This document shows, in pieces, positions 12,061 to 43,353 of a stretch of DNA of 64,000 bases. Numbering within the stretch: position 1 is the first letter of the stretch; each line of letters begins with the position of its first letter. The DNA comes from Desulfovibrio sp. (GTDB taxonomy: Bacteria; Bacillota; Dethiobacteria; DTU022): NCBI GenBank assembly GCA_020060545.1, contig JAGUZX010000135.1, positions 4,734 to 68,733 on the forward strand, written 5' to 3'. Both the position numbers and the translations under genes were made by a program. Under the pieces are notes generated by a model. The model was not told where the DNA came from. It searched no databases and saw only the letters and a program-made list of their open reading frames with translations.

Positions 12061-13413
12061 TCAACCCTCCTTTTTTTCCGGTTCATCCTTAACCGGGCGA
12101 ACCCACAGGGTCAGGGTTTCCGCCCGAATCACCTCCACTTCCGTGCCTACGGCAATGCCTGACCCGTCATGGCTGCGTGCTTTCCAAAGCTCGCCCCGGG
12201 CCTTGATCATCCCCTCCGGTGCAATTTCCGATACGGCGACCCCTTTGACCGGCTTAAAATAGGGGCTCCCGCCTTTCCACTTCCGGCGGCTGACGATCAC
12301 CCGCTGGGCAATAAGCAGGGCTAAAATCGTTATCCCGATTACCACTCCGAAGACCGTCAGGCGGAAAGAGGCGTACCACTCCGCGGCCATCAGCGGTTCA
12401 AACGGTAAAAGAATCGCCCCTGCGAGCAGGCAGACGGCGCCGCCGATCCCCAATACCCCGAAGCCGGCGGTAAAGATTTCCGCTATTATTAATCCTATCC
12501 CCAAAATTAAAAGGACTATACCGGCGGTATTGGTGTCAAAAAGGCCGATGCCGTAGATCCCCATCACCAGCAGGATCCCGCCGATCACTTCTGGTACAAA
12601 TGTTCCCGGCGCGTTTAAGCCGAAGTAGATGCCCAAAACGCCGAGCATCAGCAGCAGAAACGCAATTTGGGGATCGCTCAGCCAGTTCTGCAGCTTTTCG
12701 CGCAAATTCATTTCACCGCGCCGCAGCACCGCCCCGGCGGTGCTCAGCGTATAGCTCCGGCCCTGTTTTTCCACTTCCAGACCGTCCAGCTCCGCCAGCA
12801 GCTCGTCCAGGTCTGAAACCAGGTATTCAATGACGCCCAGCTCCAGGGCATCCCAGGAGTTTAAAGTGAGGTTTTCGGTGACAAATTTTTCGGCGATCTC
12901 CAGCGGGCGGCCCTTGGCCCTGGCCAGGCTGCGCAGGTGCTCCGCCAGGAACAAAGTTGTTTTTTCATCCGCCGGGATGGTCCCTTCCGGCGAAAGGGCT
13001 ACCGGATGAGCGGCGCCGATTGTGGTGCCCGGGGCCATGGCCGCTATATCGGCGGAAAGAACGATAAATGCCCCCGAGGAAGCGGCGATTGCTCCGGAAG
13101 GAGCGACCAATACCGCTATGGGAATCCGGGCGTTCAAGAAAGCCCTGTTGATCTCCATGGTGGCATCTACCAATCCACCCGGGGTATTCAGAATTACAAC
13201 CATCAGCTGCGCGCCCTGCTCCACCGACTCTTCGATCTGGCGCTTGAGGTAGTGCAGTTGACCGGCGGTGATGGTGCCGCCAACCTCGATTACTACAACC
13301 GCCCCTTCCGGGGTCTTTTTTACTGAAGCTCCGGCAGGCTTCACCGCGGCCGCCAGGCCAAGCAACAAAACCAATCCTATCAAGAGGAAGCCGTTCCGGT
13401 TAAACAAGATCAA
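12061..13413 (-). CDS. NfeD-family membrane-bound ClpP-class serine protease
   Basis: 450 aa. Signal peptide, ClpP-like domain, multi-TM region, C-terminal OB-fold. 3-bp gap to the SPFH gene (classic NfeD-stomatin operon). Confidence 0.8.
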   Translation of the reverse strand: MILFNRNGFLLIGLVLLLGLAAAVKPAGASVKKTPEGAVVVIEVGGTITAGQLHYLKRQIEESVEQGAQLMVVILNTPGGLVDATMEINRAFLNARIPIAVLVAPSGAIAASSGAFIVLSADIAAMAPGTTIGAAHPVALSPEGTIPADEKTTLFLAEHLRSLARAKGRPLEIAEKFVTENLTLNSWDALELGVIEYLVSDLDELLAELDGLEVEKQGRSYTLSTAGAVLRRGEMNLREKLQNWLSDPQIAFLLLMLGVLGIYFGLNAPGTFVPEVIGGILLVMGIYGIGLFDTNTAGIVLLILGIGLIIAEIFTAGFGVLGIGGAVCLLAGAILLPFEPLMAAEWYASFRLTVFGVVIGITILALLIAQRVIVSRRKWKGGSPYFKPVKGVAVSEIAPEGMIKARGELWKARSHDGSGIAVGTEVEVIRAETLTLWVRPVKDEPEKKEG

Positions 13414-13511
13414 CCACCCCCTCGCGGAAGCTCAACTTTATTTTATTATAATTTCCACTAGATTTAAAGATAACGTATATTTGGGTTTTCCATTCCTGAA
13501 AATTCTATTCC

Positions 13512-13557
13512 TTGACTCCCGCAACCAGGCAGTTTATAATATAACTATTATAGTTAT
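13512..13557 (+). promoter_or_regulatory. Sigma-A-type promoter (TTGACT-17-TATAAT) followed immediately by palindrome ATAACTAT-t-ATAGTTAT, putative Rrf2 operator
   Basis: -35 at 13512-13517 and -10 at 13535-13540 with 17-bp spacer. Perfect 8-bp inverted repeat at 13541-13557, about 25 bp upstream of the Rrf2 start. Confidence 0.55.
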
Positions 13558-13580
13558 AAATATGGAAATGGGTGGCGCCC

Positions 13581-13988
13581 TTGATTACCAAAAAAGCGGA
13601 ATACGCAATTGCCACCCTGGTGGAACTGGCCTGCCAGGGTAAAGGCTCGAAAATAATCAGCCGCACGATAGCCCAACGACGCCGGATCCCCGCGAACTTG
13701 ATTGTACAGCTGCTCAGCATTCTGCGGGAGGCCGGCTGGATCGCCAGTACCCGCGGTCCTGCCGGTGGGGTGGAACTGGTTCGCGACCCGGACCAAATCA
13801 CCTTGCGCGAAGTGATCGAGCTGATTGACGGGCCGATCGGCATTACCCGCTGCCTGACGCAAGACGGCCCCTGCCACGATCAAATCAGCTGTTCCCTGCG
13901 GGGTGTCTGGCACCGGGCGCAGGAGAAAATGCTGGAAGTGCTCGAGGCGGTTACCATTGCAGACCTGGCGCGGACTACCGGAGGTTAG
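13581..13988 (+). CDS. Rrf2-family transcriptional regulator
   Basis: N-terminal wHTH (ITKKAEYAIATLVELA) and C-terminal Cys residues (CLTQDGPCHDQISC) suggesting Fe-S ligation. TTG start at 13581 preferred; GTG at 13572 possible. Confidence 0.8.
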   Translation: MITKKAEYAIATLVELACQGKGSKIISRTIAQRRRIPANLIVQLLSILREAGWIASTRGPAGGVELVRDPDQITLREVIELIDGPIGITRCLTQDGPCHDQISCSLRGVWHRAQEKMLEVLEAVTIADLARTTGG

Positions 13989-14020
13989 AGTTTGGAAGTT
14001 GGAAGTTAGAAGAAGAATAC

Positions 14021-14063
14021 GGGCGGCGCATGCGCATACGCCGCCTTTCTGGTAGGTTTTTTT
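14021..14063 (+). terminator. Putative intrinsic terminator (GGCGGCG-catgcgcata-CGCCGCC followed by T-rich tract)
   Basis: 7-bp GC stem with 10-nt loop, then tttctggtaggttttttt. Sits between convergent Rrf2 and the 4Fe-4S gene. Confidence 0.5.
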
Positions 14064-14143
14064 GCGATGGGAGGCTGGAAGGGAGGCGGTGCGTCGCCCG
14101 CATCCGGCCTTCTGTTTTTGCCCGGTCCTGGACGGCGGCACGG

Positions 14144-14900
14144 TTAAGCTTGGCTTTTTACCGTTCCGTCGACCCCGATTATTACCTCCTTAACCCCGCT
14201 CTTCCGGCCCGCCTTTTCCAGGGCCGTCCGGATTAACTGGTTTAAACCGAAACAGCACGGCACATCCATGTGGGCGACAGTAATAGCGCCGATGGAGTTG
14301 CTTTTGAAGATCGCAACCAGCTTTTCCAGGTAAGCGGGGCTGTCGTCAAGTTTAGGGCAGCCGATGAGCAGCGATTTCCCTTTCAACAAGCGGTCGTGAA
14401 ATGCGGCATAGGCGAAAGGAACACAGTCGGCGGAGATTAAAAGGTCTTGGCCCTGTAGAAAACGGGCTTGCGGCGATACCAGGTGCAGCTGGATCGGCCA
14501 GTGAGTCAGCTCCGCTTCCGGTTCTTCTTCGACAGCAGCTTTGCCGCCGTTAAGTGCCGGCCTGCTGTGGCGGAGGTCCCTGGCCATGCTTCCGGCGCAA
14601 GCCGGGCCGCAAACTGCTTCCGCTTCAGCCTCAACACCGGGGCCGGTGTTTAAAGAATGCAGGTGCTCCTCCACCGCCGCTTCATCAAACGGCTCCGCCG
14701 CCCGCTCGATAATTTCAATCGCCCCCTCCGGGCATTCACCCAGGCAGTTCCCCAGTCCGTCGCAAAAACGATCGTCAACCAGGCGCGCTTTTCCGTCGAT
14801 GATCTGCAGCGCACCTTCGGCGCAGGAAGGAATACACAAACCGCACCCGTTGCATTTCGCTTCGTCGATTTTGACAATTTTACGGGTCTCCGCAGCCATT
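14144..14900 (-). CDS. 4Fe-4S dicluster ferredoxin-domain protein with Cys-rich C-terminal domain of unknown function
   Basis: Two CxxCxxCxxxCP motifs at N-terminus. Additional Cys (CVPF, GCPKLDD, VPCC) in the C-terminal domain. ATG at 14900 has an AAGGAGG RBS. Confidence 0.65.
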
Positions 14901-14964
14901 TTTAAATCCTCCTTTTTAATGCAAAAGTGAATTGAGCAGTTTCTGTTTTCATCTTGGCCCCGCA

Positions 14965-15469
14965 CTAATTTTCATTGATGATCTGCCGTGCTTTTTCCAC
15001 CGCATCAAGGGGAAAGTCCAGCTCCTGCGACAGCATGTGGAGAAAAGAGTCGGCCTCGCTTGCCTGTTCCGGAGCAAAGGCTCCCCGGACAGCCTCGGCG
15101 ATCAGGGCAGGCAGCGGGTCAACCTTACGGGTGACGCTTTCTGCTTCAACCCGATCCATCTTCGCCCTGATCTCCTTGACCCGGAGCGGTTCTGCCTGCA
15201 GTATCTGCGCCAGCCTCCCGTCCAGAACCCGCCGCAGCGTCTCTCCGGTTCCCAACCCTGCGCCGCCGAGGCATTTATCGGCGGAAGCACACCACTGGGC
15301 GCAGCCCAGGTTAAACTGGGGATTGACGACACTCTTCCGGCAGTTCGGGCAGCGCACCCGCACGTCCGTTTTCCAGAATTCAATTAGTGAACCGCAGTAT
15401 GGGCACTCCTGTTCGTGAATGTCTTCCGCTTTCCAGTAGCGGGTATCCTGCCCGGGGCATTTTGCAGTG
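14965..15469 (-). CDS. Zinc-ribbon protein (CPYCG...CPNC) of unknown function; start codon uncertain
   Basis: Open frame runs from stop at 15490-15492 (minus strand) without an in-frame ATG/GTG/TTG before the CxxC pairs. A G8 tract/RBS-like AAAGGGGGGGG sits just upstream. The track's GTG at 15363 would truncate the zinc ribbon. Confidence 0.4.
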
Positions 15470-15648
15470 AACAGCGGAATCCCCCCCCTTTATATAACTA
15501 ATCAGGTTAGTTATTATTATACTTGTTTTTTCCCGGTTTGACAACTGTTTTTTTTAGTTTTTAAAAGTGAAATAAAAATCGTGAAATAAAAATTAAAAGC
15601 GGAATCTCTTCCGCTTAAAAGCAGCCCTTCTGGACTCGTTCTGATGTT

Positions 15649-16110
15649 CTACGACTCGTATAACCAGCCATCCTGGTCCAGCCGGTAAGCGCATATTTCC
15701 GGTGCGCTAAAAAACAGGTCGATCTCGCGGCGGGCGCTGGCTGTCGAGTCAGAGCCGTGCACAAGGTTATTGCCGGTAAAGATAGCCAGGTCGCCCCTGA
15801 TGGTTCCCGGTACCGCCTGCCTGGGATCGGTGGCGCCAATCAATGTTCGCGCTACGGCTACGGCGTCATCTCCCTCCCAGACCATCGCCACAACAGGCCC
15901 CGAAGTGATAAATGAAAGCAGGCCGTTGTAAAAAGGCTTGCCCCGGTGTTCGGCGTAATGACGCGCAGCCAATTCCGGCGATATTTGCAGCATCTTCAGC
16001 GCTGCGAGCTGCAGCCCTTTACGCTCGAGCCGGCCGATTACCTCCCCCACCAACTTGCGCTGGACTCCGTCAGGCTTAACCATGACAAAAGTTTGTTCTC
16101 TTTTAGACAT
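15649..16110 (-). CDS. ndk: Nucleoside diphosphate kinase
   Basis: [16 protein letters not shown] start and [19 protein letters not shown] motif. Confidence 0.9.
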
Positions 16111-16132
16111 TGACCGGCCTCCCTGGCCCGAC

Positions 16133-17101
16133 TTAATAAATTGTAAACAGGTGATCGTCGTCAATCACCCTGGTTTCGGTGTCACGCCGGTCCCGGTTAT
16201 CCCGCGGGACCGCAAACATGCCCCGGTGAGTCTCCGCATCGTAAAAAGAGAGCGAAAGTTTGCGCTCCCGGAGGCGCCGGTCGATCACTTCCGGTTCAAT
16301 CAGGCCCAAATCGCCATCCCGGGAAACGATGGCATAGCTCCAATCGGTATTGAAAGAAGGAACGAAAGCGTGGTACGAATAAACCCGCGGCATTACTTGC
16401 TTAATTGTGTTGAAAATGACCAGATGTGCGTCCAGGTAAGCTTTGGAGAAATCGCCGGCTTGCAGCGCCAGGATGCCGCCCTCAAAGAGCCGCGCTTTGA
16501 CCAGTTCATAAAACTGCCTGGTAAAGAGCCGGCGCGACGGTCCTTCCTCCACCGGTTCGGACAGGTCGCTGATGATTACATCGAAGCAAAGCGCGTTTTC
16601 TTCAAGGTAACGGCGCGCATCCATGTGGATAAGCTCCAGGCGGGGATCGTTAAAGCTGCCCTGGTGCCACCGCTCCAGGTATTGTTTGCACAGGGTGACG
16701 ACTTCGGCATCGATATCCACCATGACCACCCGCTCCACACAAGCGTGGCGCAGCACCTCCCGCAGCGTGGCCCCTTCCCCGCCTCCGATAATCATAACCC
16801 GGCGGGGGTTCGGGTGCAGCAGCATCGCCGGTTGAACCAGCGCTTCATGGTAAATGTACTCGTCATACTCGGCGGACTGGATCTTTCCGTCTAGCACCAG
16901 GCACCGCCCGAAAAAGTGGGTATCGACTATTTCAGCCTGTTGAAACCCGGTCCGCACGCTGCAAATATAATCCTTCACCGCGAACATGTGCGCCGTGGCC
17001 GGAGATGTATATTCGATATACCATTTATGTTCAGGAGAAGTCAAGGCAGGATCTCCTCCTTTAATAGTTAACCGCCGGTTTATGTTCCAGGGGGACATCA
17101 A
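16133..17101 (-). CDS. speE: Spermidine synthase
   Basis: [16 protein letters not shown] and DIDAEV...HMDARRYL motifs of aminopropyltransferase. Exact start uncertain. Confidence 0.85.
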
Positions 17102-17444
17102 AGATGCCGCGCTTTATTTCACGGGCGGTCATATTTTCTGCGGCAAATCTCTGTTTCAAGTAGTTACATGAAACCCATGGGTCAACGGTCTGACCACAGG
17201 TAAAAATGTCTACCGCAGCGTAACCAAATTCCGGCCAGGTGTGAATAGCCAGGTGTGATTCGGAAATCACTACCACGCCGCTGACACCCTGGGGGCTGAA
17301 CTGGTGAAACACTGTCTCCCTGACTTCAGCTCCCGCTTCCAAAGCCGCTGCCACCATCTCCTGCTTGATCCGATCCGGATTGTTTAACTTCTCCGGTGGG
17401 CAGCCGTAGAACTCGGCCAAAATATGACGGCCTAAAGCGCTCAT
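17061..17444 (-). CDS. speH: S-adenosylmethionine decarboxylase proenzyme (class 1A)
   Basis: [15 protein letters not shown]... with [13 protein letters not shown] self-cleavage motif. Confidence 0.85.
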
Positions 17445-17683
17445 CTCTAATACCTCCTTGTATCCAGTTTTTTTCAAGAGAAAAGCATCAAATTACATTG
17501 TAACAAAGTTCTTTCAAATGTCAATGAAATACACTCAAAATCAGGTAAAAAAACCCGCGTTGCGGCACAAGCAGTCTTTTCCGGGCAAAATGGTGATATA
17601 TTCCTTGCCTAACCCTCTAGCTTTGGCTTAAACTAAAACCAGCGGTTTATAACGTATCATATACCAGTATAAGGAAGCAACTG

Positions 17684-19798
17684 ATGGGCGCACTGGATTT
17701 TTTATTCCATCCCAAGCAAATCGCCGTCATCGGGGCCTCCGGCTCCCCACGTAAAATTGGACGGGTCATCCTGGACAACATTGTTAAAAGCGGCTACCGG
17801 GGACGGATTTACCCGGTCAACCCGCAAGAAAAGGAGATCGCCGGTTTGAAATGTTATCCCGCCGCACATCAAATCGGAACGCCGGTGGAGCTGGCCGTAG
17901 TTGCCGTGCCCGCTGATCGCTCCCTCCAGGTGGCCCGGGAATGCGGCGCCGCCGGCGTGAAAGGGCTGATTGTTATCAGCGCCGGGTTCAAGGAAGTCGG
18001 ATCGGAGGGGCTGAAACAAGAGCGCGAACTGCTCGCCGTCTGCCGCCAGTATGACATGCGCATGGTCGGCCCGAACTGTGTCGGATTAATGGACACCCAT
18101 ACACCGTTAAATGCTTCTTTTGCCAGGGGGTTCCCCGGGCAGGGTAATATTACTTTCATTTCGCAAAGCGGCGCGATGCTGGTCTCCATCCTGGACTGGA
18201 GCTTCGCCATGGGGTTGGGCTTTTCCCGTTTCATCAGCCTGGGGAATAAGGCGGACCTTAACGAAATCGACTTTATTGAAAGCAGTGCCGCCGACCCTCA
18301 GACCAAGGTCATCCTCTGCTATCTCGAGGACGTTACGGACGGTGAACGTTTTATCCGCGTTTGCACTGCAGCCGGCAAGCGAAAACCGATTATTATCCTC
18401 AAATCAGGCACCAGCACCGCCGGGGCCCAGGCGGCCAGTTCCCACACCGGCGCCCTGGCCGGCAGCAACCGCGCCTACGAAACCGCTTTCCGGCAGAGCG
18501 GTGTCCTCCAGGTAAGCCAAATGAGCGAACTTTTTGATCTGGCCGGGGCTTTTGCCGTCCAACCGCCCCCCGCCGGGGACAGGGTGGCAATCGTGACTAA
18601 CGCCGGGGGGCCGGCGATCGTCACTACCGATGCTGTGGAAAGATCCGGCTTGAAAATGGCGCGTTTCGAGAGGGAAACCATTGACGCTTTGCATTTGAAT
18701 CTTCCTCCGGAGGCGAATATTTACAACCCCGTGGATATCCTCGGCGATGCGGGCGTGGAACGCTACCGTTTCGCCCTGGAAAAGGTGCTCCAGGATCAAA
18801 ATGTCGACAGTGCCCTGGTGCTGCTGTGCCCGGCGGCGGTAACCGAACCGGAGAAAACAGCCCGAGTAATTTTGGAGCTGAAGGACGCCTTCCCCCGCAA
18901 GCCTGTTTTCGCCGTTTATATGGGTGGGAAAAGCCTGGCCAGAGGAAAAGAGATGCTGACCCTGGGGGGGGTCCCCACTTTTACCTTCCCGGAAACCGCG
19001 GTCAAAACACTGGAAGGGATAGTGCGCTTCAGCCGTGCTGCGCTGGAAACAGCGCCGCTCCCCCCCCTGCGGCTGGAAGGCGCCGACCAGAATGCGGTCA
19101 AAGCCGCTTTTTATGACGTTTTAAAAGACCGGCGCGTGGTCCTGCTCGGCCACGAAAGTTCCCGGGTCATGGCGGCGTACGGGATCCCGGCCAGCCCGGT
19201 GCGCCTGGCTTCTTCCGCGGAGGAGGCCGCGGCGATCAGTAGGGAGATCGGCTTTCCGGTGGTGCTCAAAATATCCTCGCCCCGCATCGCGCATAAGACA
19301 GACGTCGGCGGAGTTGAAATCGGGCTGCACAACGACCGGTCGGTCGAGCGGGCTTATAAAAAGATCATGGAGCGCGTGCAGCGTTTCCTGCCGGATGCCC
19401 CCATTTATGGGGTCGAGGTTCAAAAAATGGTAGACGAAGGCGTTGAAGTGATTATCGGTATGTCCCGCGATCTCCAGTTTGGCCCGCTTGTTGTATTTGG
19501 GCTGGGCGGTATTTACGTCAACCTGATCGAGGATGTTTCTTTCCGCCTCGCTTCCGCCTTGACCACCCGCAAGGCGGTGGAAGAGCTGATTGCCGAAACC
19601 AAGGCTTATACTCTCCTGAAAGGGTACCGGGGAAAGAAAACCGCCGATATGGAGGCGCTGATCGACGCCATTTTCCGGACGGCGCGCCTGGTGCTCGATT
19701 TCGAAGAAATCTCGGAGATGGACATCAACCCCTTGCGTGTGCATACCCGGGGAGCAACCGCTCTCGATGTAAAGATGACGATCGAACGCGTGCATTAA
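17684..19798 (+). CDS. ADP-forming acyl/acetyl-CoA synthetase, fused alpha-beta subunits (NDP-forming acyl-CoA synthetase superfamily)
   Basis: 704 aa. CoA-binding N-terminus (IAVIGASGSP), ligase-CoA domain, C-terminal ATP-grasp domain. Confidence 0.85.
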   Translation: MGALDFLFHPKQIAVIGASGSPRKIGRVILDNIVKSGYRGRIYPVNPQEKEIAGLKCYPAAHQIGTPVELAVVAVPADRSLQVARECGAAGVKGLIVISAGFKEVGSEGLKQERELLAVCRQYDMRMVGPNCVGLMDTHTPLNASFARGFPGQGNITFISQSGAMLVSILDWSFAMGLGFSRFISLGNKADLNEIDFIESSAADPQTKVILCYLEDVTDGERFIRVCTAAGKRKPIIILKSGTSTAGAQAASSHTGALAGSNRAYETAFRQSGVLQVSQMSELFDLAGAFAVQPPPAGDRVAIVTNAGGPAIVTTDAVERSGLKMARFERETIDALHLNLPPEANIYNPVDILGDAGVERYRFALEKVLQDQNVDSALVLLCPAAVTEPEKTARVILELKDAFPRKPVFAVYMGGKSLARGKEMLTLGGVPTFTFPETAVKTLEGIVRFSRAALETAPLPPLRLEGADQNAVKAAFYDVLKDRRVVLLGHESSRVMAAYGIPASPVRLASSAEEAAAISREIGFPVVLKISSPRIAHKTDVGGVEIGLHNDRSVERAYKKIMERVQRFLPDAPIYGVEVQKMVDEGVEVIIGMSRDLQFGPLVVFGLGGIYVNLIEDVSFRLASALTTRKAVEELIAETKAYTLLKGYRGKKTADMEALIDAIFRTARLVLDFEEISEMDINPLRVHTRGATALDVKMTIERVH

Positions 19799-22041: not shown

Positions 22042-22270
22042 ACCGGCCCACCCCCCCCTGTAGCTCCATTATCTTTAGCGGATCGCGCATAATATACGAC
22101 TAACAGAAAACTATTGCATCCCACTTATCAATCATCATTGTCATTTGTGCAAAGTTCAGGAGGTAAACTGCTTTTCTGATCCGGATGTGGTGTGCCATTT
22201 TGCAGCGGTTGCTGCGTTATTATAGCAGAACGATTGGTTAAAGTAAACCTTTTTCTGGACGGTTTGCCTT

Positions 22271-22302
22271 TTATTTATAACTATTTATAACTATTTATAA
22301 CT
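22271..22302. repeat. Tandem 10-bp repeat (C/T)TATTTATAA x3 plus partial copy, about 80 bp upstream of the GH18 gene
   Basis: ttatttataa ctatttataa ctatttataa ct read directly in sequence. Confidence 0.8.
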
Positions 22303-22382
22303 GCCTGCCAGTCATTTCACAAAAAGGAGAAACGGTCTGAGTTGTTGAAAAAAAAGGTACAGTACGGCATGGAGGCCGACCA

Positions 22383-24122
22383 ATGAACAATAGTTTCCCG
22401 GATCCACTCCAAACCGGATCCGTTTTTCCGGTTAAGCGCAAACAACCCGGCATCATGATCCATACCCTGGCGTTACTGCTGATGGCCGCGGTTTGCAGCG
22501 TCACCGTTCATCTGGCTCCGGGTTTAATCCAGGTGCCCTGGGGAAGCCGGACAGTCGTAGTAATCGGGAATCAGAAGGCGGGCGAGGGGAAAGCAAAGGT
22601 TGAAGAGCGCGAAATATACATTCACGTTGAAATCCTGAGATCATACCTGGATCCCAATTTCTTTTGGGACGCGCAGGAAAAGATTGCGGTCATTACCACG
22701 GCCGATCGGGTAATCCACATGTACAGCGAAACGCTGTCGGCGGAGATTAATCTGCAGCCGGTCGAACTCCAGTTTCCTCTCCGGGAAGAAGAAGACGGCC
22801 TTTACCTGCCGCTGTGTTTCCTGGCGGATTATTACGAGCTCCAGGTCGGCTATCATCCTGAAACCGACACATTGGTGATTGACCAATTCGGTGACACGGC
22901 GCACCTGGCTGTTATCGGTTCCCGTAGCGTCCGCCTCCGCGAAAGGCCCGGCTTGCACCACCCTTACCTGACCGTCCTGGAACGCGGCGAAAAGGTCAGA
23001 GTCCAGGAGCTTCAAGCAAGCTGGAGCCTGGTGCGTACCGCCGGCGGGTTAACCGGCTACATCCCGCGAAACAGTTTTTATCTAACCGGTCCCTTTCCGC
23101 TTCCTGAACACCCGCCCGCCGTCGATGCGGTTCGAGAGAAACAGTTTCCGCGGCACCCCCTGGTGATGACCTGGGAATTTGCCTATACCAGGCCAAACAT
23201 CAACACCATCGGACCGATGGCTCCGCTCCAGGTGATTTCTCCAACCTGGTTTCAGCTGCGGGACGCCCAGGGCAACCTTAGCAACCGGGCCGATCCCGCC
23301 TATGCCCACTGGGCCAAGGAAAGGGGTTACCTGATCTGGGCTCTGGCAAGCAACGACTTCCACAGCCCCGGGGATACGGCCCAGGTTCTAGCCAGTTCAA
23401 CGCTCCGGCGAAAGGTGATTAATCAATTGTTGATTTATGCCCGCCTTTACGAACTGGACGGCCTGAACATCGATTTCGAGAATTTTCACTATCAATACAG
23501 AGACTACTTTACCCAGTTTATCCGAGAGCTGGCGCCGCTTTGCCGGTCCGAAGGGTTAGTGCTTTCCGTAGATCTAACCATGATCTCCATGGAGCCGTAC
23601 TGGAGCAGGGGATATGATCGGCGGGCCCTGGCCGAGGCGGCCGACTACGTCATTTTGATGGCGTATGATGAACACTGGGAAAACGGCCCCGTTCCCGGCC
23701 CGGTAGCCTCCCTGCCCTGGGTCGAAAGGGGCCTGCAGAAAGTACTGCAAGAAGTTGACGCCGAAAAACTAATCCTGGGGGTGCCTTTTTATACCAGGCT
23801 ATGGCAGGTGGAGAACCTGGCCGGAGGGGGTGAAAATATCAGCTCCAAATCGTATTCCATGGTGTGGATCGACCAGCTCCTGGCCGAGAAAAAAGCCCGC
23901 TTTGAGTGGGACAGCCGGGCGCTTCAACACATGGCGGAATATTCTGAGGACGGCAGTCTTTACAAGGTTTGGTTGGAAGACGCAGCTTCGCTGACACAGC
24001 GGCTCGAACTGGTCAACCGCTACCGCCTGGCGGGAGTAGCCGGATGGAGGCGGGGACTGGAAAAACCGGAGACCTGGGAGTTAATCAGCACGGTCCTTGC
24101 CGGCTACGGCCAAAACCGGTAG
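22383..24122 (+). CDS. GH18-family glycoside hydrolase with N-terminal cell-wall-binding-like and SH3-like domains (SleL/YaaH/YdhD-like spore peptidoglycan hydrolase)
   Basis: GH18 catalytic motif region (DGLNIDFE), N-terminal signal/TM, SH3b-like segment. Confidence 0.65.
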   Translation: MNNSFPDPLQTGSVFPVKRKQPGIMIHTLALLLMAAVCSVTVHLAPGLIQVPWGSRTVVVIGNQKAGEGKAKVEEREIYIHVEILRSYLDPNFFWDAQEKIAVITTADRVIHMYSETLSAEINLQPVELQFPLREEEDGLYLPLCFLADYYELQVGYHPETDTLVIDQFGDTAHLAVIGSRSVRLRERPGLHHPYLTVLERGEKVRVQELQASWSLVRTAGGLTGYIPRNSFYLTGPFPLPEHPPAVDAVREKQFPRHPLVMTWEFAYTRPNINTIGPMAPLQVISPTWFQLRDAQGNLSNRADPAYAHWAKERGYLIWALASNDFHSPGDTAQVLASSTLRRKVINQLLIYARLYELDGLNIDFENFHYQYRDYFTQFIRELAPLCRSEGLVLSVDLTMISMEPYWSRGYDRRALAEAADYVILMAYDEHWENGPVPGPVASLPWVERGLQKVLQEVDAEKLILGVPFYTRLWQVENLAGGGENISSKSYSMVWIDQLLAEKKARFEWDSRALQHMAEYSEDGSLYKVWLEDAASLTQRLELVNRYRLAGVAGWRRGLEKPETWELISTVLAGYGQNR

Positions 24123-43086: not shown

Positions 43087-43353
43087 ATGGTCAAATTGGG
43101 CCTGGAAGAGGTGGCCCTGGAAGGCTGCCGGGGCAAGCTGAAGCTTAAACCGAGTAAGAACCCCGCCATTTATAACCCGCCGGAGCAGTTCATCGTTACC
43201 GCCAACCAGGATCTGAACCAATACGGGGGGGGTGAATGTAAACAACCTTTCCATGGCCCCCTACCGCGCCACTGCCGCTGGCGGGCCTGGCTATCCTGGC
43301 CGTTATGGCAACTGGGGCCGGCCTCCTTCACAGGAGAAGGCGTTAACTTATAA
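43087..43353 (+). pseudogene. Possible remnant of a penicillin-amidase (S45/Ntn-hydrolase) family gene
   Basis: Short frame encodes KNPAIYNPPEQFIVTANQDL, resembling the conserved NPxSGxIxxANN motif. Embedded in a 660-bp gap without an intact ORF. A G7 tract sits at the apparent frame break. Confidence 0.2.

Follow-up and report, generated by a model that had tools for sequence, protein, structure and literature searches.

A likely Rrf2-controlled regulon with a probable CTG start in its Zn-ribbon gene, from a genome of the Bacillota

The window analysed here is a stretch of 64,000 nucleotides from contig JAGUZX010000135.1 (GenBank assembly GCA_020060545.1, positions 4,734 to 68,733 of the forward strand), deposited as Desulfovibrio sp. 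and placed by GTDB within the Bacillota (Dethiobacteria, DTU022). It encodes a regulator of the Rrf2 family (rrf2), which faces a two-gene operon for a Zn-ribbon protein (znr) and a 4Fe-4S ferredoxin (fd). It is likely that rrf2 and znr-fd together constitute a small Rrf2-controlled regulon, in which znr is translated from a CTG codon and a tract of eight guanines (G8) functions as its Shine–Dalgarno (SD) sequence. From the sequence, we infer that both units are under an autoregulated, cluster- or thiol-based Rrf2 repressor; this applies to the binding as well as to its direction. Parts of this arrangement had been proposed in an earlier reading of the same DNA, made without database searches and referred to below as the original prediction.

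Candidate operators at the two promoters

The rrf2 gene is preceded by a TTGACT-17-TATAAT promoter (13512-13540), which scores 11/12 in a consensus promoter scan. Right behind its -10 box, the perfect palindrome ATAACTAT-t-ATAGTTAT can be read from the sequence at 13541-13557. Both elements are present as the original prediction had described them. This palindrome, termed operator 1, directly abuts the -10 hexamer and spans the expected transcription start. The start codon of rrf2 is TTG 13581 (protein MITK...), which aligns with ATG-ATT-ACx-AAA in about 50 homologues. The first start codon of the open reading frame (ORF), GTG 13572, was dropped on the basis of this alignment.

On the minus strand, znr and fd follow a TTGTCA-17-TATAAT promoter (15544..15516; 11/12) that was absent from the original prediction. 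The half-sites ATAACTA and TAGTTAT do recur ahead of znr as had been noted, in the form ATAACTA-atcaggt-TAGTTAT at 15494-15514, and these letters make up an 8+5+8 palindrome, ATAACTAA-tcagg-TTAGTTAT. The arrangement of 7+7+7 that was originally described is not the conserved unit. Across species this unit is the 17-mer ATAAC-N7-GTTAT/G, with the same N7 spacing as at rrf2. In gene orientation, operator 2 reads CTAAC-N7-GTTAT; it occupies 15494-15510, nested in the 21-bp palindrome, and lies 5 nt downstream of the znr-fd -10 box. The outer 21-bp symmetry at znr is found only in the closest clade (loci L002-L005 and L054). L081, the nearest relative, has ATAC in place of the outer ATAAC but retains the inner CTAAC-N7-GTTAT. 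An explanation of the 21-bp palindrome as a TAAC duplication was given up after comparison of L002, L003 and L081, in favour of the inner 17-mer with an AT-rich spacer.

The pattern ATAACTA-N1-9-TAGTTAT occurs twice in the window, against zero occurrences expected from 100 shuffles. A position weight matrix (PWM) was derived from sites in other genomes (44 of rrf2 and 49 of znr), with the window excluded. Over the 64 kb, only two places exceed 8 bits, namely 13538-13560 (33.2 bits) and 15491-15513 (30.6 bits, with an overlapping register of 23 bits at the same site); the best match in 20 shuffles reached 14.4 bits.

Further copies of ATAACTA at 22277 and 22287 were rejected as operators: they are part of a threefold tandem direct repeat of TTTATAACTA and score below 8 bits with the PWM. 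This repeat is an element in its own right, consisting of three 10-bp units (TTTATAACTA TTTATAACTA TTTATAACTG) at 22272-22303. It is intergenic, and a 579-aa ORF (22383-24122, plus strand) begins about 80 nt downstream of it. Its 10-bp period corresponds to one helical turn, and it resembles the direct-repeat site of a response regulator. Operator control of nfeD, on the other side of the rrf2 promoter, was also considered and dropped. The best promoter candidate of nfeD (13468..13440, 9/12) is separated from the operator by about 70 nt, and the nfeD genes of other loci are preceded by only two weak matches without an AT-rich character.

Conservation of the operators across species

With one genome taken per species, 409 genomes with a Znr relative were confirmed, and loci were obtained for 80 of these. 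The species of the window itself is outside this set, in which the best match is 51% identical. The gene order of the block in the window is ndk>znr>fd><rrf2|nfeD>SPFH, and the same order is kept in about 45 Bacillota species represented by metagenome-assembled genomes (MAGs), many of which are labelled Syntrophomonadaceae. Upstream of both znr and rrf2 in nearly all syntenic loci, TTGaCx-17-TATAAT is followed directly by ATAACyA...rGTTAT/G; for rrf2, the promoter form TTGACx-17-TATAAT was counted in about 45 related loci. The operator adjoins the -10 hexamer without a gap in 35 of 48 rrf2 promoters; among the znr promoters, 33 of 58 have 4 nt between the two.

A wider search for the motif found the site enriched ahead of these two genes. 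The related loci, 598 kb in all, contain 112 matches to ATAAC-N7-GTTAT when up to one mismatch is allowed, and 90 of them lie no more than 90 nt upstream of znr (51) or rrf2 (39). The others have no AT-rich centre and seem to be random. Conservation of the distal half-site GTTAT/G is as strong as that of the left one and the centre is variable, which is the signature of a dimeric transcription factor (TF) site.

Each palindrome is a perfect inverted repeat and follows a -10 box, so that the two might be thought to act as RNA hairpins of the 5′-UTR instead of as DNA operators. The predicted RNA folds are weak (-2.5 and -3.7 kcal/mol), and operator positions 6 and 12 carry C/A in 18 of 48 sites, so that the sequence is conserved without covariation. 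Transcription is moreover expected to begin inside the left arm, and there is no Rfam match to such an element. Such a role in RNA has next to no probability. Because of the lack of covariation, the weak hairpins and the missing Rfam match, the palindromes are considered to be protein-binding DNA sites.

The Rrf2 protein as the candidate binder

The regulator carries the Rrf2 domain PF02082 (6e-38; 130.4 bits against a cut-off of 30) and scores 108.9 bits with TIGR00738, above the cut-off of 73.3. It falls under every NCBIfam equivalog cut-off tried (IscR, NsrR, CymR and RirA): the IscR models TIGR02010 and NF008110 give 80.6 bits against 207.55 and 64.6 bits against 275, respectively, and the NsrR equivalog NF008240 gives 47.1 bits against 182. 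The best match in the PDB is 4cic, the IscR of Thermincola potens (E 1e-18). Three cysteines, Cys91, Cys98 and Cys104, are invariant in 52 Rrf2 sequences. It is predicted that these residues are most likely able to ligate an Fe-S cluster, as in the cluster-binding subgroup of Rrf2 proteins.

The gene rrf2 adjoins znr in 51 loci. It is monocistronic in the window and in the syntenic loci, where it converges on the operon, and it is co-directional with znr in L044, L046 and L078, which have a different gene order. Two further types of locus carry a convergent rrf2 directly downstream. In the P0030 type (L087-L090), the Znr N-domain is joined to a weak HD-like C-domain and no fd gene is present. 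In P0029 (L085 and L086), the Znr N-domain is fused to the AF_0155 domain of the ferredoxin.

The Rrf2 protein is proposed as the binder because the motif lies on its own promoter and rrf2 is invariably linked to znr. Rrf2 repressors typically bind dyad operators overlapping -10 boxes, and HypR, an Rrf2 repressor of Staphylococcus aureus, binds TAATTGTAACTA-N3-CAGTTACAATTA over the -10 box of its own promoter (PMC6067689). It is very unlikely that the palindromes are bound by a TF other than the Rrf2 protein encoded beside them, or that they are AT-rich promoter-proximal elements without a dedicated regulator. The left half-site does overlap AT-rich sequence beside the -10 box, which may be conserved for promoter reasons, and Rrf2 is the predicted binder. 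A mere promoter element would nonetheless leave the equal conservation of the distal GTTAT/G around a variable centre to be explained. The motif also occurs on the rrf2 promoter and on the always-linked gene in about 50 species and several gene orders, and dyads over the -10 box are usual for Rrf2 repressors. The phylogenetic footprinting and the conserved linkage of rrf2 and znr strongly support the proposal of the original prediction that operator 1 is a putative autoregulatory Rrf2 site. They also favour its suggestion that the same regulator may act at the Zn-ribbon/4Fe-4S operon.

The start codon of znr

As had been stated in the original prediction, the Zn-ribbon ORF has no canonical start ahead of its CxxC motifs, and the plus strand carries C8 at 15481-15488. 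The minus-strand frame runs TAA (15492-15490), R, G, G, I (ATT 15480), P, L (CTG 15474), F, T, A, K, C, P, G, Q. GTG 15363 is the first ATG, GTG or TTG codon of this frame.

Comparison with relatives indicates where translation may begin. Thirty homologues of 170-206 aa begin with M-[IL]-x-x-K-C-P-G-Q, and their Met column corresponds to CTG 15474 of the window. The start codon in loci with an alignable N-terminus is mostly ATG, with GTG in three, TTG in two and CTG never. At the position of the G8 tract, close relatives carry GGAGG, GGGGAGG, GGGGGTG or GTGGGAGAG. L003 reads GGGGAGG-cggtcta-ATG and L081 (63% identity) reads GTGGGAGAG-attgac-GTG; the window reads GGGGGGGG-attccg-CTG, with the same 6-nt spacer as L081. 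Because the relatives carry a G-rich SD sequence at the same place, the G8 tract is interpreted as the SD sequence of znr.

The codons K5-D37, 33 in number and all upstream of GTG 15363, differ from those of L081 in 11 synonymous but only 3 nonsynonymous cases. From this ratio it follows that the N-terminal 33 codons are, or until recently were, translated. In addition, all 11 invariant and 31 nearly invariant residues of the family are retained in the Znr of the window. The first codon of znr is probably CTG 15474. This codon, preferred to ATT 15480 by inference, fits better with regard to the Met column, the SD spacing and the purifying selection, and a rare start is thereby the one of the options in the original prediction that agrees with the comparison.

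The public annotations (P0001 and P0031; NCBI and JGI/IMG) describe znr as a protein of 132 aa from GTG 15363. The start site has very probably been mis-annotated because of the CTG start: the 37 residues that are lost from the N-terminus contain three conserved Cys and the segment best conserved in the family. That translation truly starts at GTG 15363, as the gene callers chose, or at ATT 15480, a near-cognate codon in the correct frame, is highly improbable. ATT 15480 abuts the G8 tract and leaves no SD spacing. No SD-like sequence precedes GTG 15363, and the segment that it would delete is under purifying selection.

The sequence of G8, ATTCCG and CTG is identical in three other assemblies (L082, L083 and L084). 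These were found through the cluster members P0031 and P0032; a search for contigs encoding P0001 found none. One of the three is a Logan assembly of run SRR22388167, in which 1 of 1922 bases differs from the window (V99A in znr). The other two, the JGI contigs L083 and L084, match the window over 1013 nt with 100% identity. Their samples (Ga0104751 and Ga0104761) have a prefix in common with the Dethiobacter MAG “SURF_39” (L051), which points to the deep subsurface as the possible source of the window. Exact-match scans of metagenome contigs for further strain variants of the G-tract found none. It has been noted that positions 1-124 of L083 and 1-61 of L084 do not align past window position 15835, inside ndk, which could reflect a strain-level rearrangement or an assembly-end artefact.

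The original prediction had also considered that the G8 tract is a phase switch, or that a sequencing error in it hides a canonical start, as homopolymers of eight are prone to indels. Both options are scarcely credible. The tract has a length of 8 in all four assemblies and the CTG is identical among them. It is part of the 5′-UTR, where the relatives have their SD sequence, and is outside the reading frame and the -35/-10 spacer. None of the three frames contains an ATG, GTG or TTG from the znr -10 box to the tract. As no canonical start exists in the 5′-UTR and an in-frame TAA is located directly upstream, a tract of G7 or G9 would be unable to restore a canonical start. The 64 kb contain five G8/C8 runs in all, with the further ones at 18964-18971, 19060-19067, 22051-22058 and 43225-43232; the first two of these belong to a 704-aa ORF (17684-19798) that is intact. 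Runs of this kind reflect the general composition of the genome and are not special switches.

There is also the case that the start codon of znr was lost recently, through a change of ATG or GTG to CTG. The gene would then be silenced or bound to become a pseudogene, with only fd being made. The absence of CTG from every other aligned homologue would agree with such a loss, as would the level of CUG initiation in Escherichia coli, which is about 1-2% of that of AUG (10.1101/063800). The fd gene, with its own canonical SD sequence and start (AAAGGAGGA-N8-ATG), could be made regardless. The znr ORF, however, is intact and keeps the invariant and nearly invariant residues. Its SD sequence is intact at the correct spacing, its promoter and operator are intact, and CTG is fixed in four assemblies, one of which differs elsewhere in znr. 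A loss of the start is regarded as unlikely, and initiation at CTG 15474 is retained as the preferred reading.

Znr, the ferredoxin and their genomic context

Znr consists of a Cys-rich Zn-ribbon N-domain with eight conserved Cys and a helical C-domain (AF2 model with pLDDT 80). No Pfam or NCBIfam family matched the protein. Foldseek comparison of the AF2 model with the PDB gave no match with E <1 and returned generic zinc ribbons only, and a PDB profile search with the Znr alignment yielded nothing meaningful. The helical C-terminal domain in the window has no HD match. A genuine HD domain is present in the Znr proteins of the distant taxa described below, with scores of 26-43 bits (threshold 22).

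The fd product has a 2x[4Fe-4S] ferredoxin domain followed by a C-terminal AF_0155 domain (PF27217). The source names of its homologues are uninformative (“ferredoxin” or “4Fe-4S binding protein”), and searching the literature for AF_0155 brought up nothing but unrelated accession numbers.

The neighbourhoods of distant relatives are more telling. A gene for the hybrid cluster protein, hcp (Prismane, E 1e-165 to 1e-184), stands directly beside znr and/or fd in L064, L065, L071, L076, L077 and L078. This amounts to 6 of 23 distant loci, from Thermodesulfobacteriota, Planctomycetota and other distant phyla. In L058, the order is iscS - nifU - fd - znr - DUF438/hemerythrin/PAS; iscS-nifU adjoins fd-znr only in distant loci of this kind. 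No hcp was found in the window or in the Bacillota loci, and no hmp in the window. Ferredoxin-like frdX genes linked to hcp have been described as members of nitric oxide (NO)-responsive HcpR regulons (PMC1274295). In Clostridioides difficile, frdX is induced by NO and required for NO tolerance in a role that is not known (PMC12915319). Judged by gene neighbourhoods alone, the regulon would most likely respond to Fe-S status, or to Fe-S clusters being damaged by nitrosative or oxidative stress.

Proposed mechanism

In the proposed mechanism, an Rrf2 dimer would occupy the two ATAAC-N7-GTTAT/G operators, at its own promoter and at that of znr-fd. As the operators lie over the expected transcription start, bound Rrf2 would block RNA polymerase at both units. 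Damage to or loss of the sensing centre, through NO, oxidants or Fe-S shortage, may then derepress rrf2 and znr-fd. Translation of znr would initiate at CTG 15474, with the G8 tract 6 nt upstream acting as the SD sequence. Because CUG supports about 1-2% of AUG initiation and fd has a canonical SD sequence and ATG, Znr is probably made in far lower quantities than the ferredoxin.

Several points weigh against this mechanism. The equivalog scores below their cut-offs mean that the signal of Rrf2 is not transferable by homology. The link to nitrosative stress comes from distant taxa only, with hcp missing from the window. CTG is unique to the window among the aligned homologues, which have ATG, GTG or TTG at that place. 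Purifying selection measured against a relative of 63% identity is blind to very recent inactivation. Finally, two of the three “independent” assemblies may share samples with the genome of the window.

A broader proposal is that Rrf2, Znr as a Cys-rich Zn ribbon joined to an HD or HD-derived domain, and the FrdX-like ferredoxin constitute an undescribed module of strict anaerobes that responds to nitrosative or Fe-S damage. In such a module, Rrf2 would replace HcpR/NsrR as the sensor, and the CTG start would have been selected to keep Znr sub-stoichiometric to the ferredoxin. This proposal is tentative and, on balance, doubtful. The module could be widespread, as at least 409 species-level genomes carry a Znr relative.

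Comparison with known systems

The predicted architecture is that of a classical Rrf2 autorepressor, and four regulatory systems offer points of comparison. NsrR is a [4Fe-4S] NO-sensing repressor of hcp, hmp and ytfE, with hcp a classical target of NsrR/HcpR (PMC1274295). The Rrf2 protein of the window shares with it the Rrf2 fold, the three conserved Cys and a dyad operator overlapping the promoter. Furthermore, relatives of fd and znr are found beside the NsrR target hcp in other phyla. It differs in its score with the NsrR model (47 bits against 182) and in that the window has neither hcp nor hmp. The sequence of the operator also differs from published NsrR sites.

The IscR of T. potens (4cic), a Gram-positive anaerobe, is the best solved relative and has the three-Cys motif, and in L058 the genes znr and fd follow iscS-nifU. 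The gene rrf2 in the window, however, is monocistronic and outside any isc or suf operon, and its product scores 80.6 bits against 207.6. Its cysteines are spaced C-x6-C-x5-C, and the third residue beyond the last of them is not His.

HypR of S. aureus is an autoregulated, redox-sensing Rrf2 repressor with an inverted repeat over the -10 box. The core of this repeat, GTAACTA-N3-CAGTTAC (PMC6067689), resembles ATAACTA-N3-TAGTTAT of the window. HypR operates through a thiol switch (Cys33), lacks the three-Cys cluster motif and controls merA, and the match of the window protein to the NCBIfam HypR model is insignificant (16 bits against 180).

The fourth system is hcp-frdX, the HcpR regulon of Desulfovibrio and Clostridia. 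Homologues of the window fd lie beside hcp in six distant loci, which is a likeness of neighbourhood only. The regulator in the window belongs to the Rrf2 family and not to CRP/FNR, and the window has the Zn-ribbon gene in addition.

For the start codon, the E. coli genes infC and pcnB have near-cognate AUU starts, and infC is under autoregulatory control by IF3. The likeness to znr lies in conserved coding sequence that lacks a canonical start and has a near-cognate codon at the correct SD spacing. The codon in the window is CUG and not AUU, it is not conserved in orthologues, and no autoregulatory logic like that of infC is known for it.

The analysis assigns a candidate operator and a two-gene regulon to an Rrf2 subfamily that is named by no curated model. 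It also ties an uncharacterised Zn-ribbon/HD family, the KCPGQDTRYW Znr proteins, to FrdX-like ferredoxins and hcp. The KCPGQDTRYW Znr family and the Fer4+AF_0155 ferredoxins are widespread and uncharacterised, and they are now connected to a putative regulatory signal that can be tested. Distant relatives connect both families with the hybrid cluster protein and with IscS/NifU. The conserved partner gene and the second type of regulator provide leads on FrdX-type ferredoxins and NO tolerance (PMC12915319). The gene znr is also a test case for the calling of start codons at near-cognate codons, with the public version very probably short by 37 residues.

Locus layout and minor elements

The coordinates of the features of the locus are collected in Table 1.

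Table 1. Features of the rrf2 and znr-fd region in coordinates of the window.
Feature	Position	Strand	Description
rrf2 promoter	13512..13540	+	-35 TTGACT 13512-13517, 17-nt spacer, -10 TATAAT 13535-13540; promoter scan 11/12
Operator 1 (candidate)	13541..13557	no strand	ATAACTATTATAGTTAT, ATAAC-N7-GTTAT; PWM 33.2 bits
rrf2 gene	13581..13988	+	135 aa, TTG start; Rrf2 winged-helix regulator
GC-rich terminator-like hairpin	14022..14045	between convergent rrf2/fd	10-pair stem scored on -; T-run on +
fd gene	14144..14902	-	252 aa; own AAAGGAGGA SD sequence and ATG
znr gene	14965..15474	-	169 aa if CTG 15474 is the start
G8 tract, putative SD sequence of znr (AAAGGGGGGGG)	15481..15488	-	6 nt before CTG; C8 on plus strand
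Operator 2 (candidate), conserved 17-mer	15494..15510	no strand	plus strand ATAACTAATCAGGTTAG; PWM 30.6 bits
znr-fd promoter	15516..15544	-	-35 TTGTCA 15544-15539, 17-nt spacer, -10 TATAAT 15521-15516; scan 11/12
Terminator-like hairpin and T-run	15597..15616	-	3′ of ndk, parts ndk from the znr promoter

An Rfam scan of 13300-15700 returned only a sub-threshold THF riboswitch at 14011-14113 on the plus strand (19.9 bits against 36, E 0.71). It overlaps the inter-gene terminator hairpin and is regarded as a chance match.

The start of nfeD on the minus strand (13405-13425) is probably TTG 13407, in the context GGGGGTGG-ttgatc-TTG. The first start codon of this ORF, TTG 13413, is less likely because it abuts the SD sequence. 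The context of nfeD therefore indicates that a G-rich SD sequence with a 6-nt spacer is normal in this organism.

Beyond ndk, the genes speD (AdoMet decarboxylase) and speE (spermidine synthase) extend the block. The order speD-speE-ndk-znr (window positions of approximately 15649-17477) is kept in the soda-lake relative L085.

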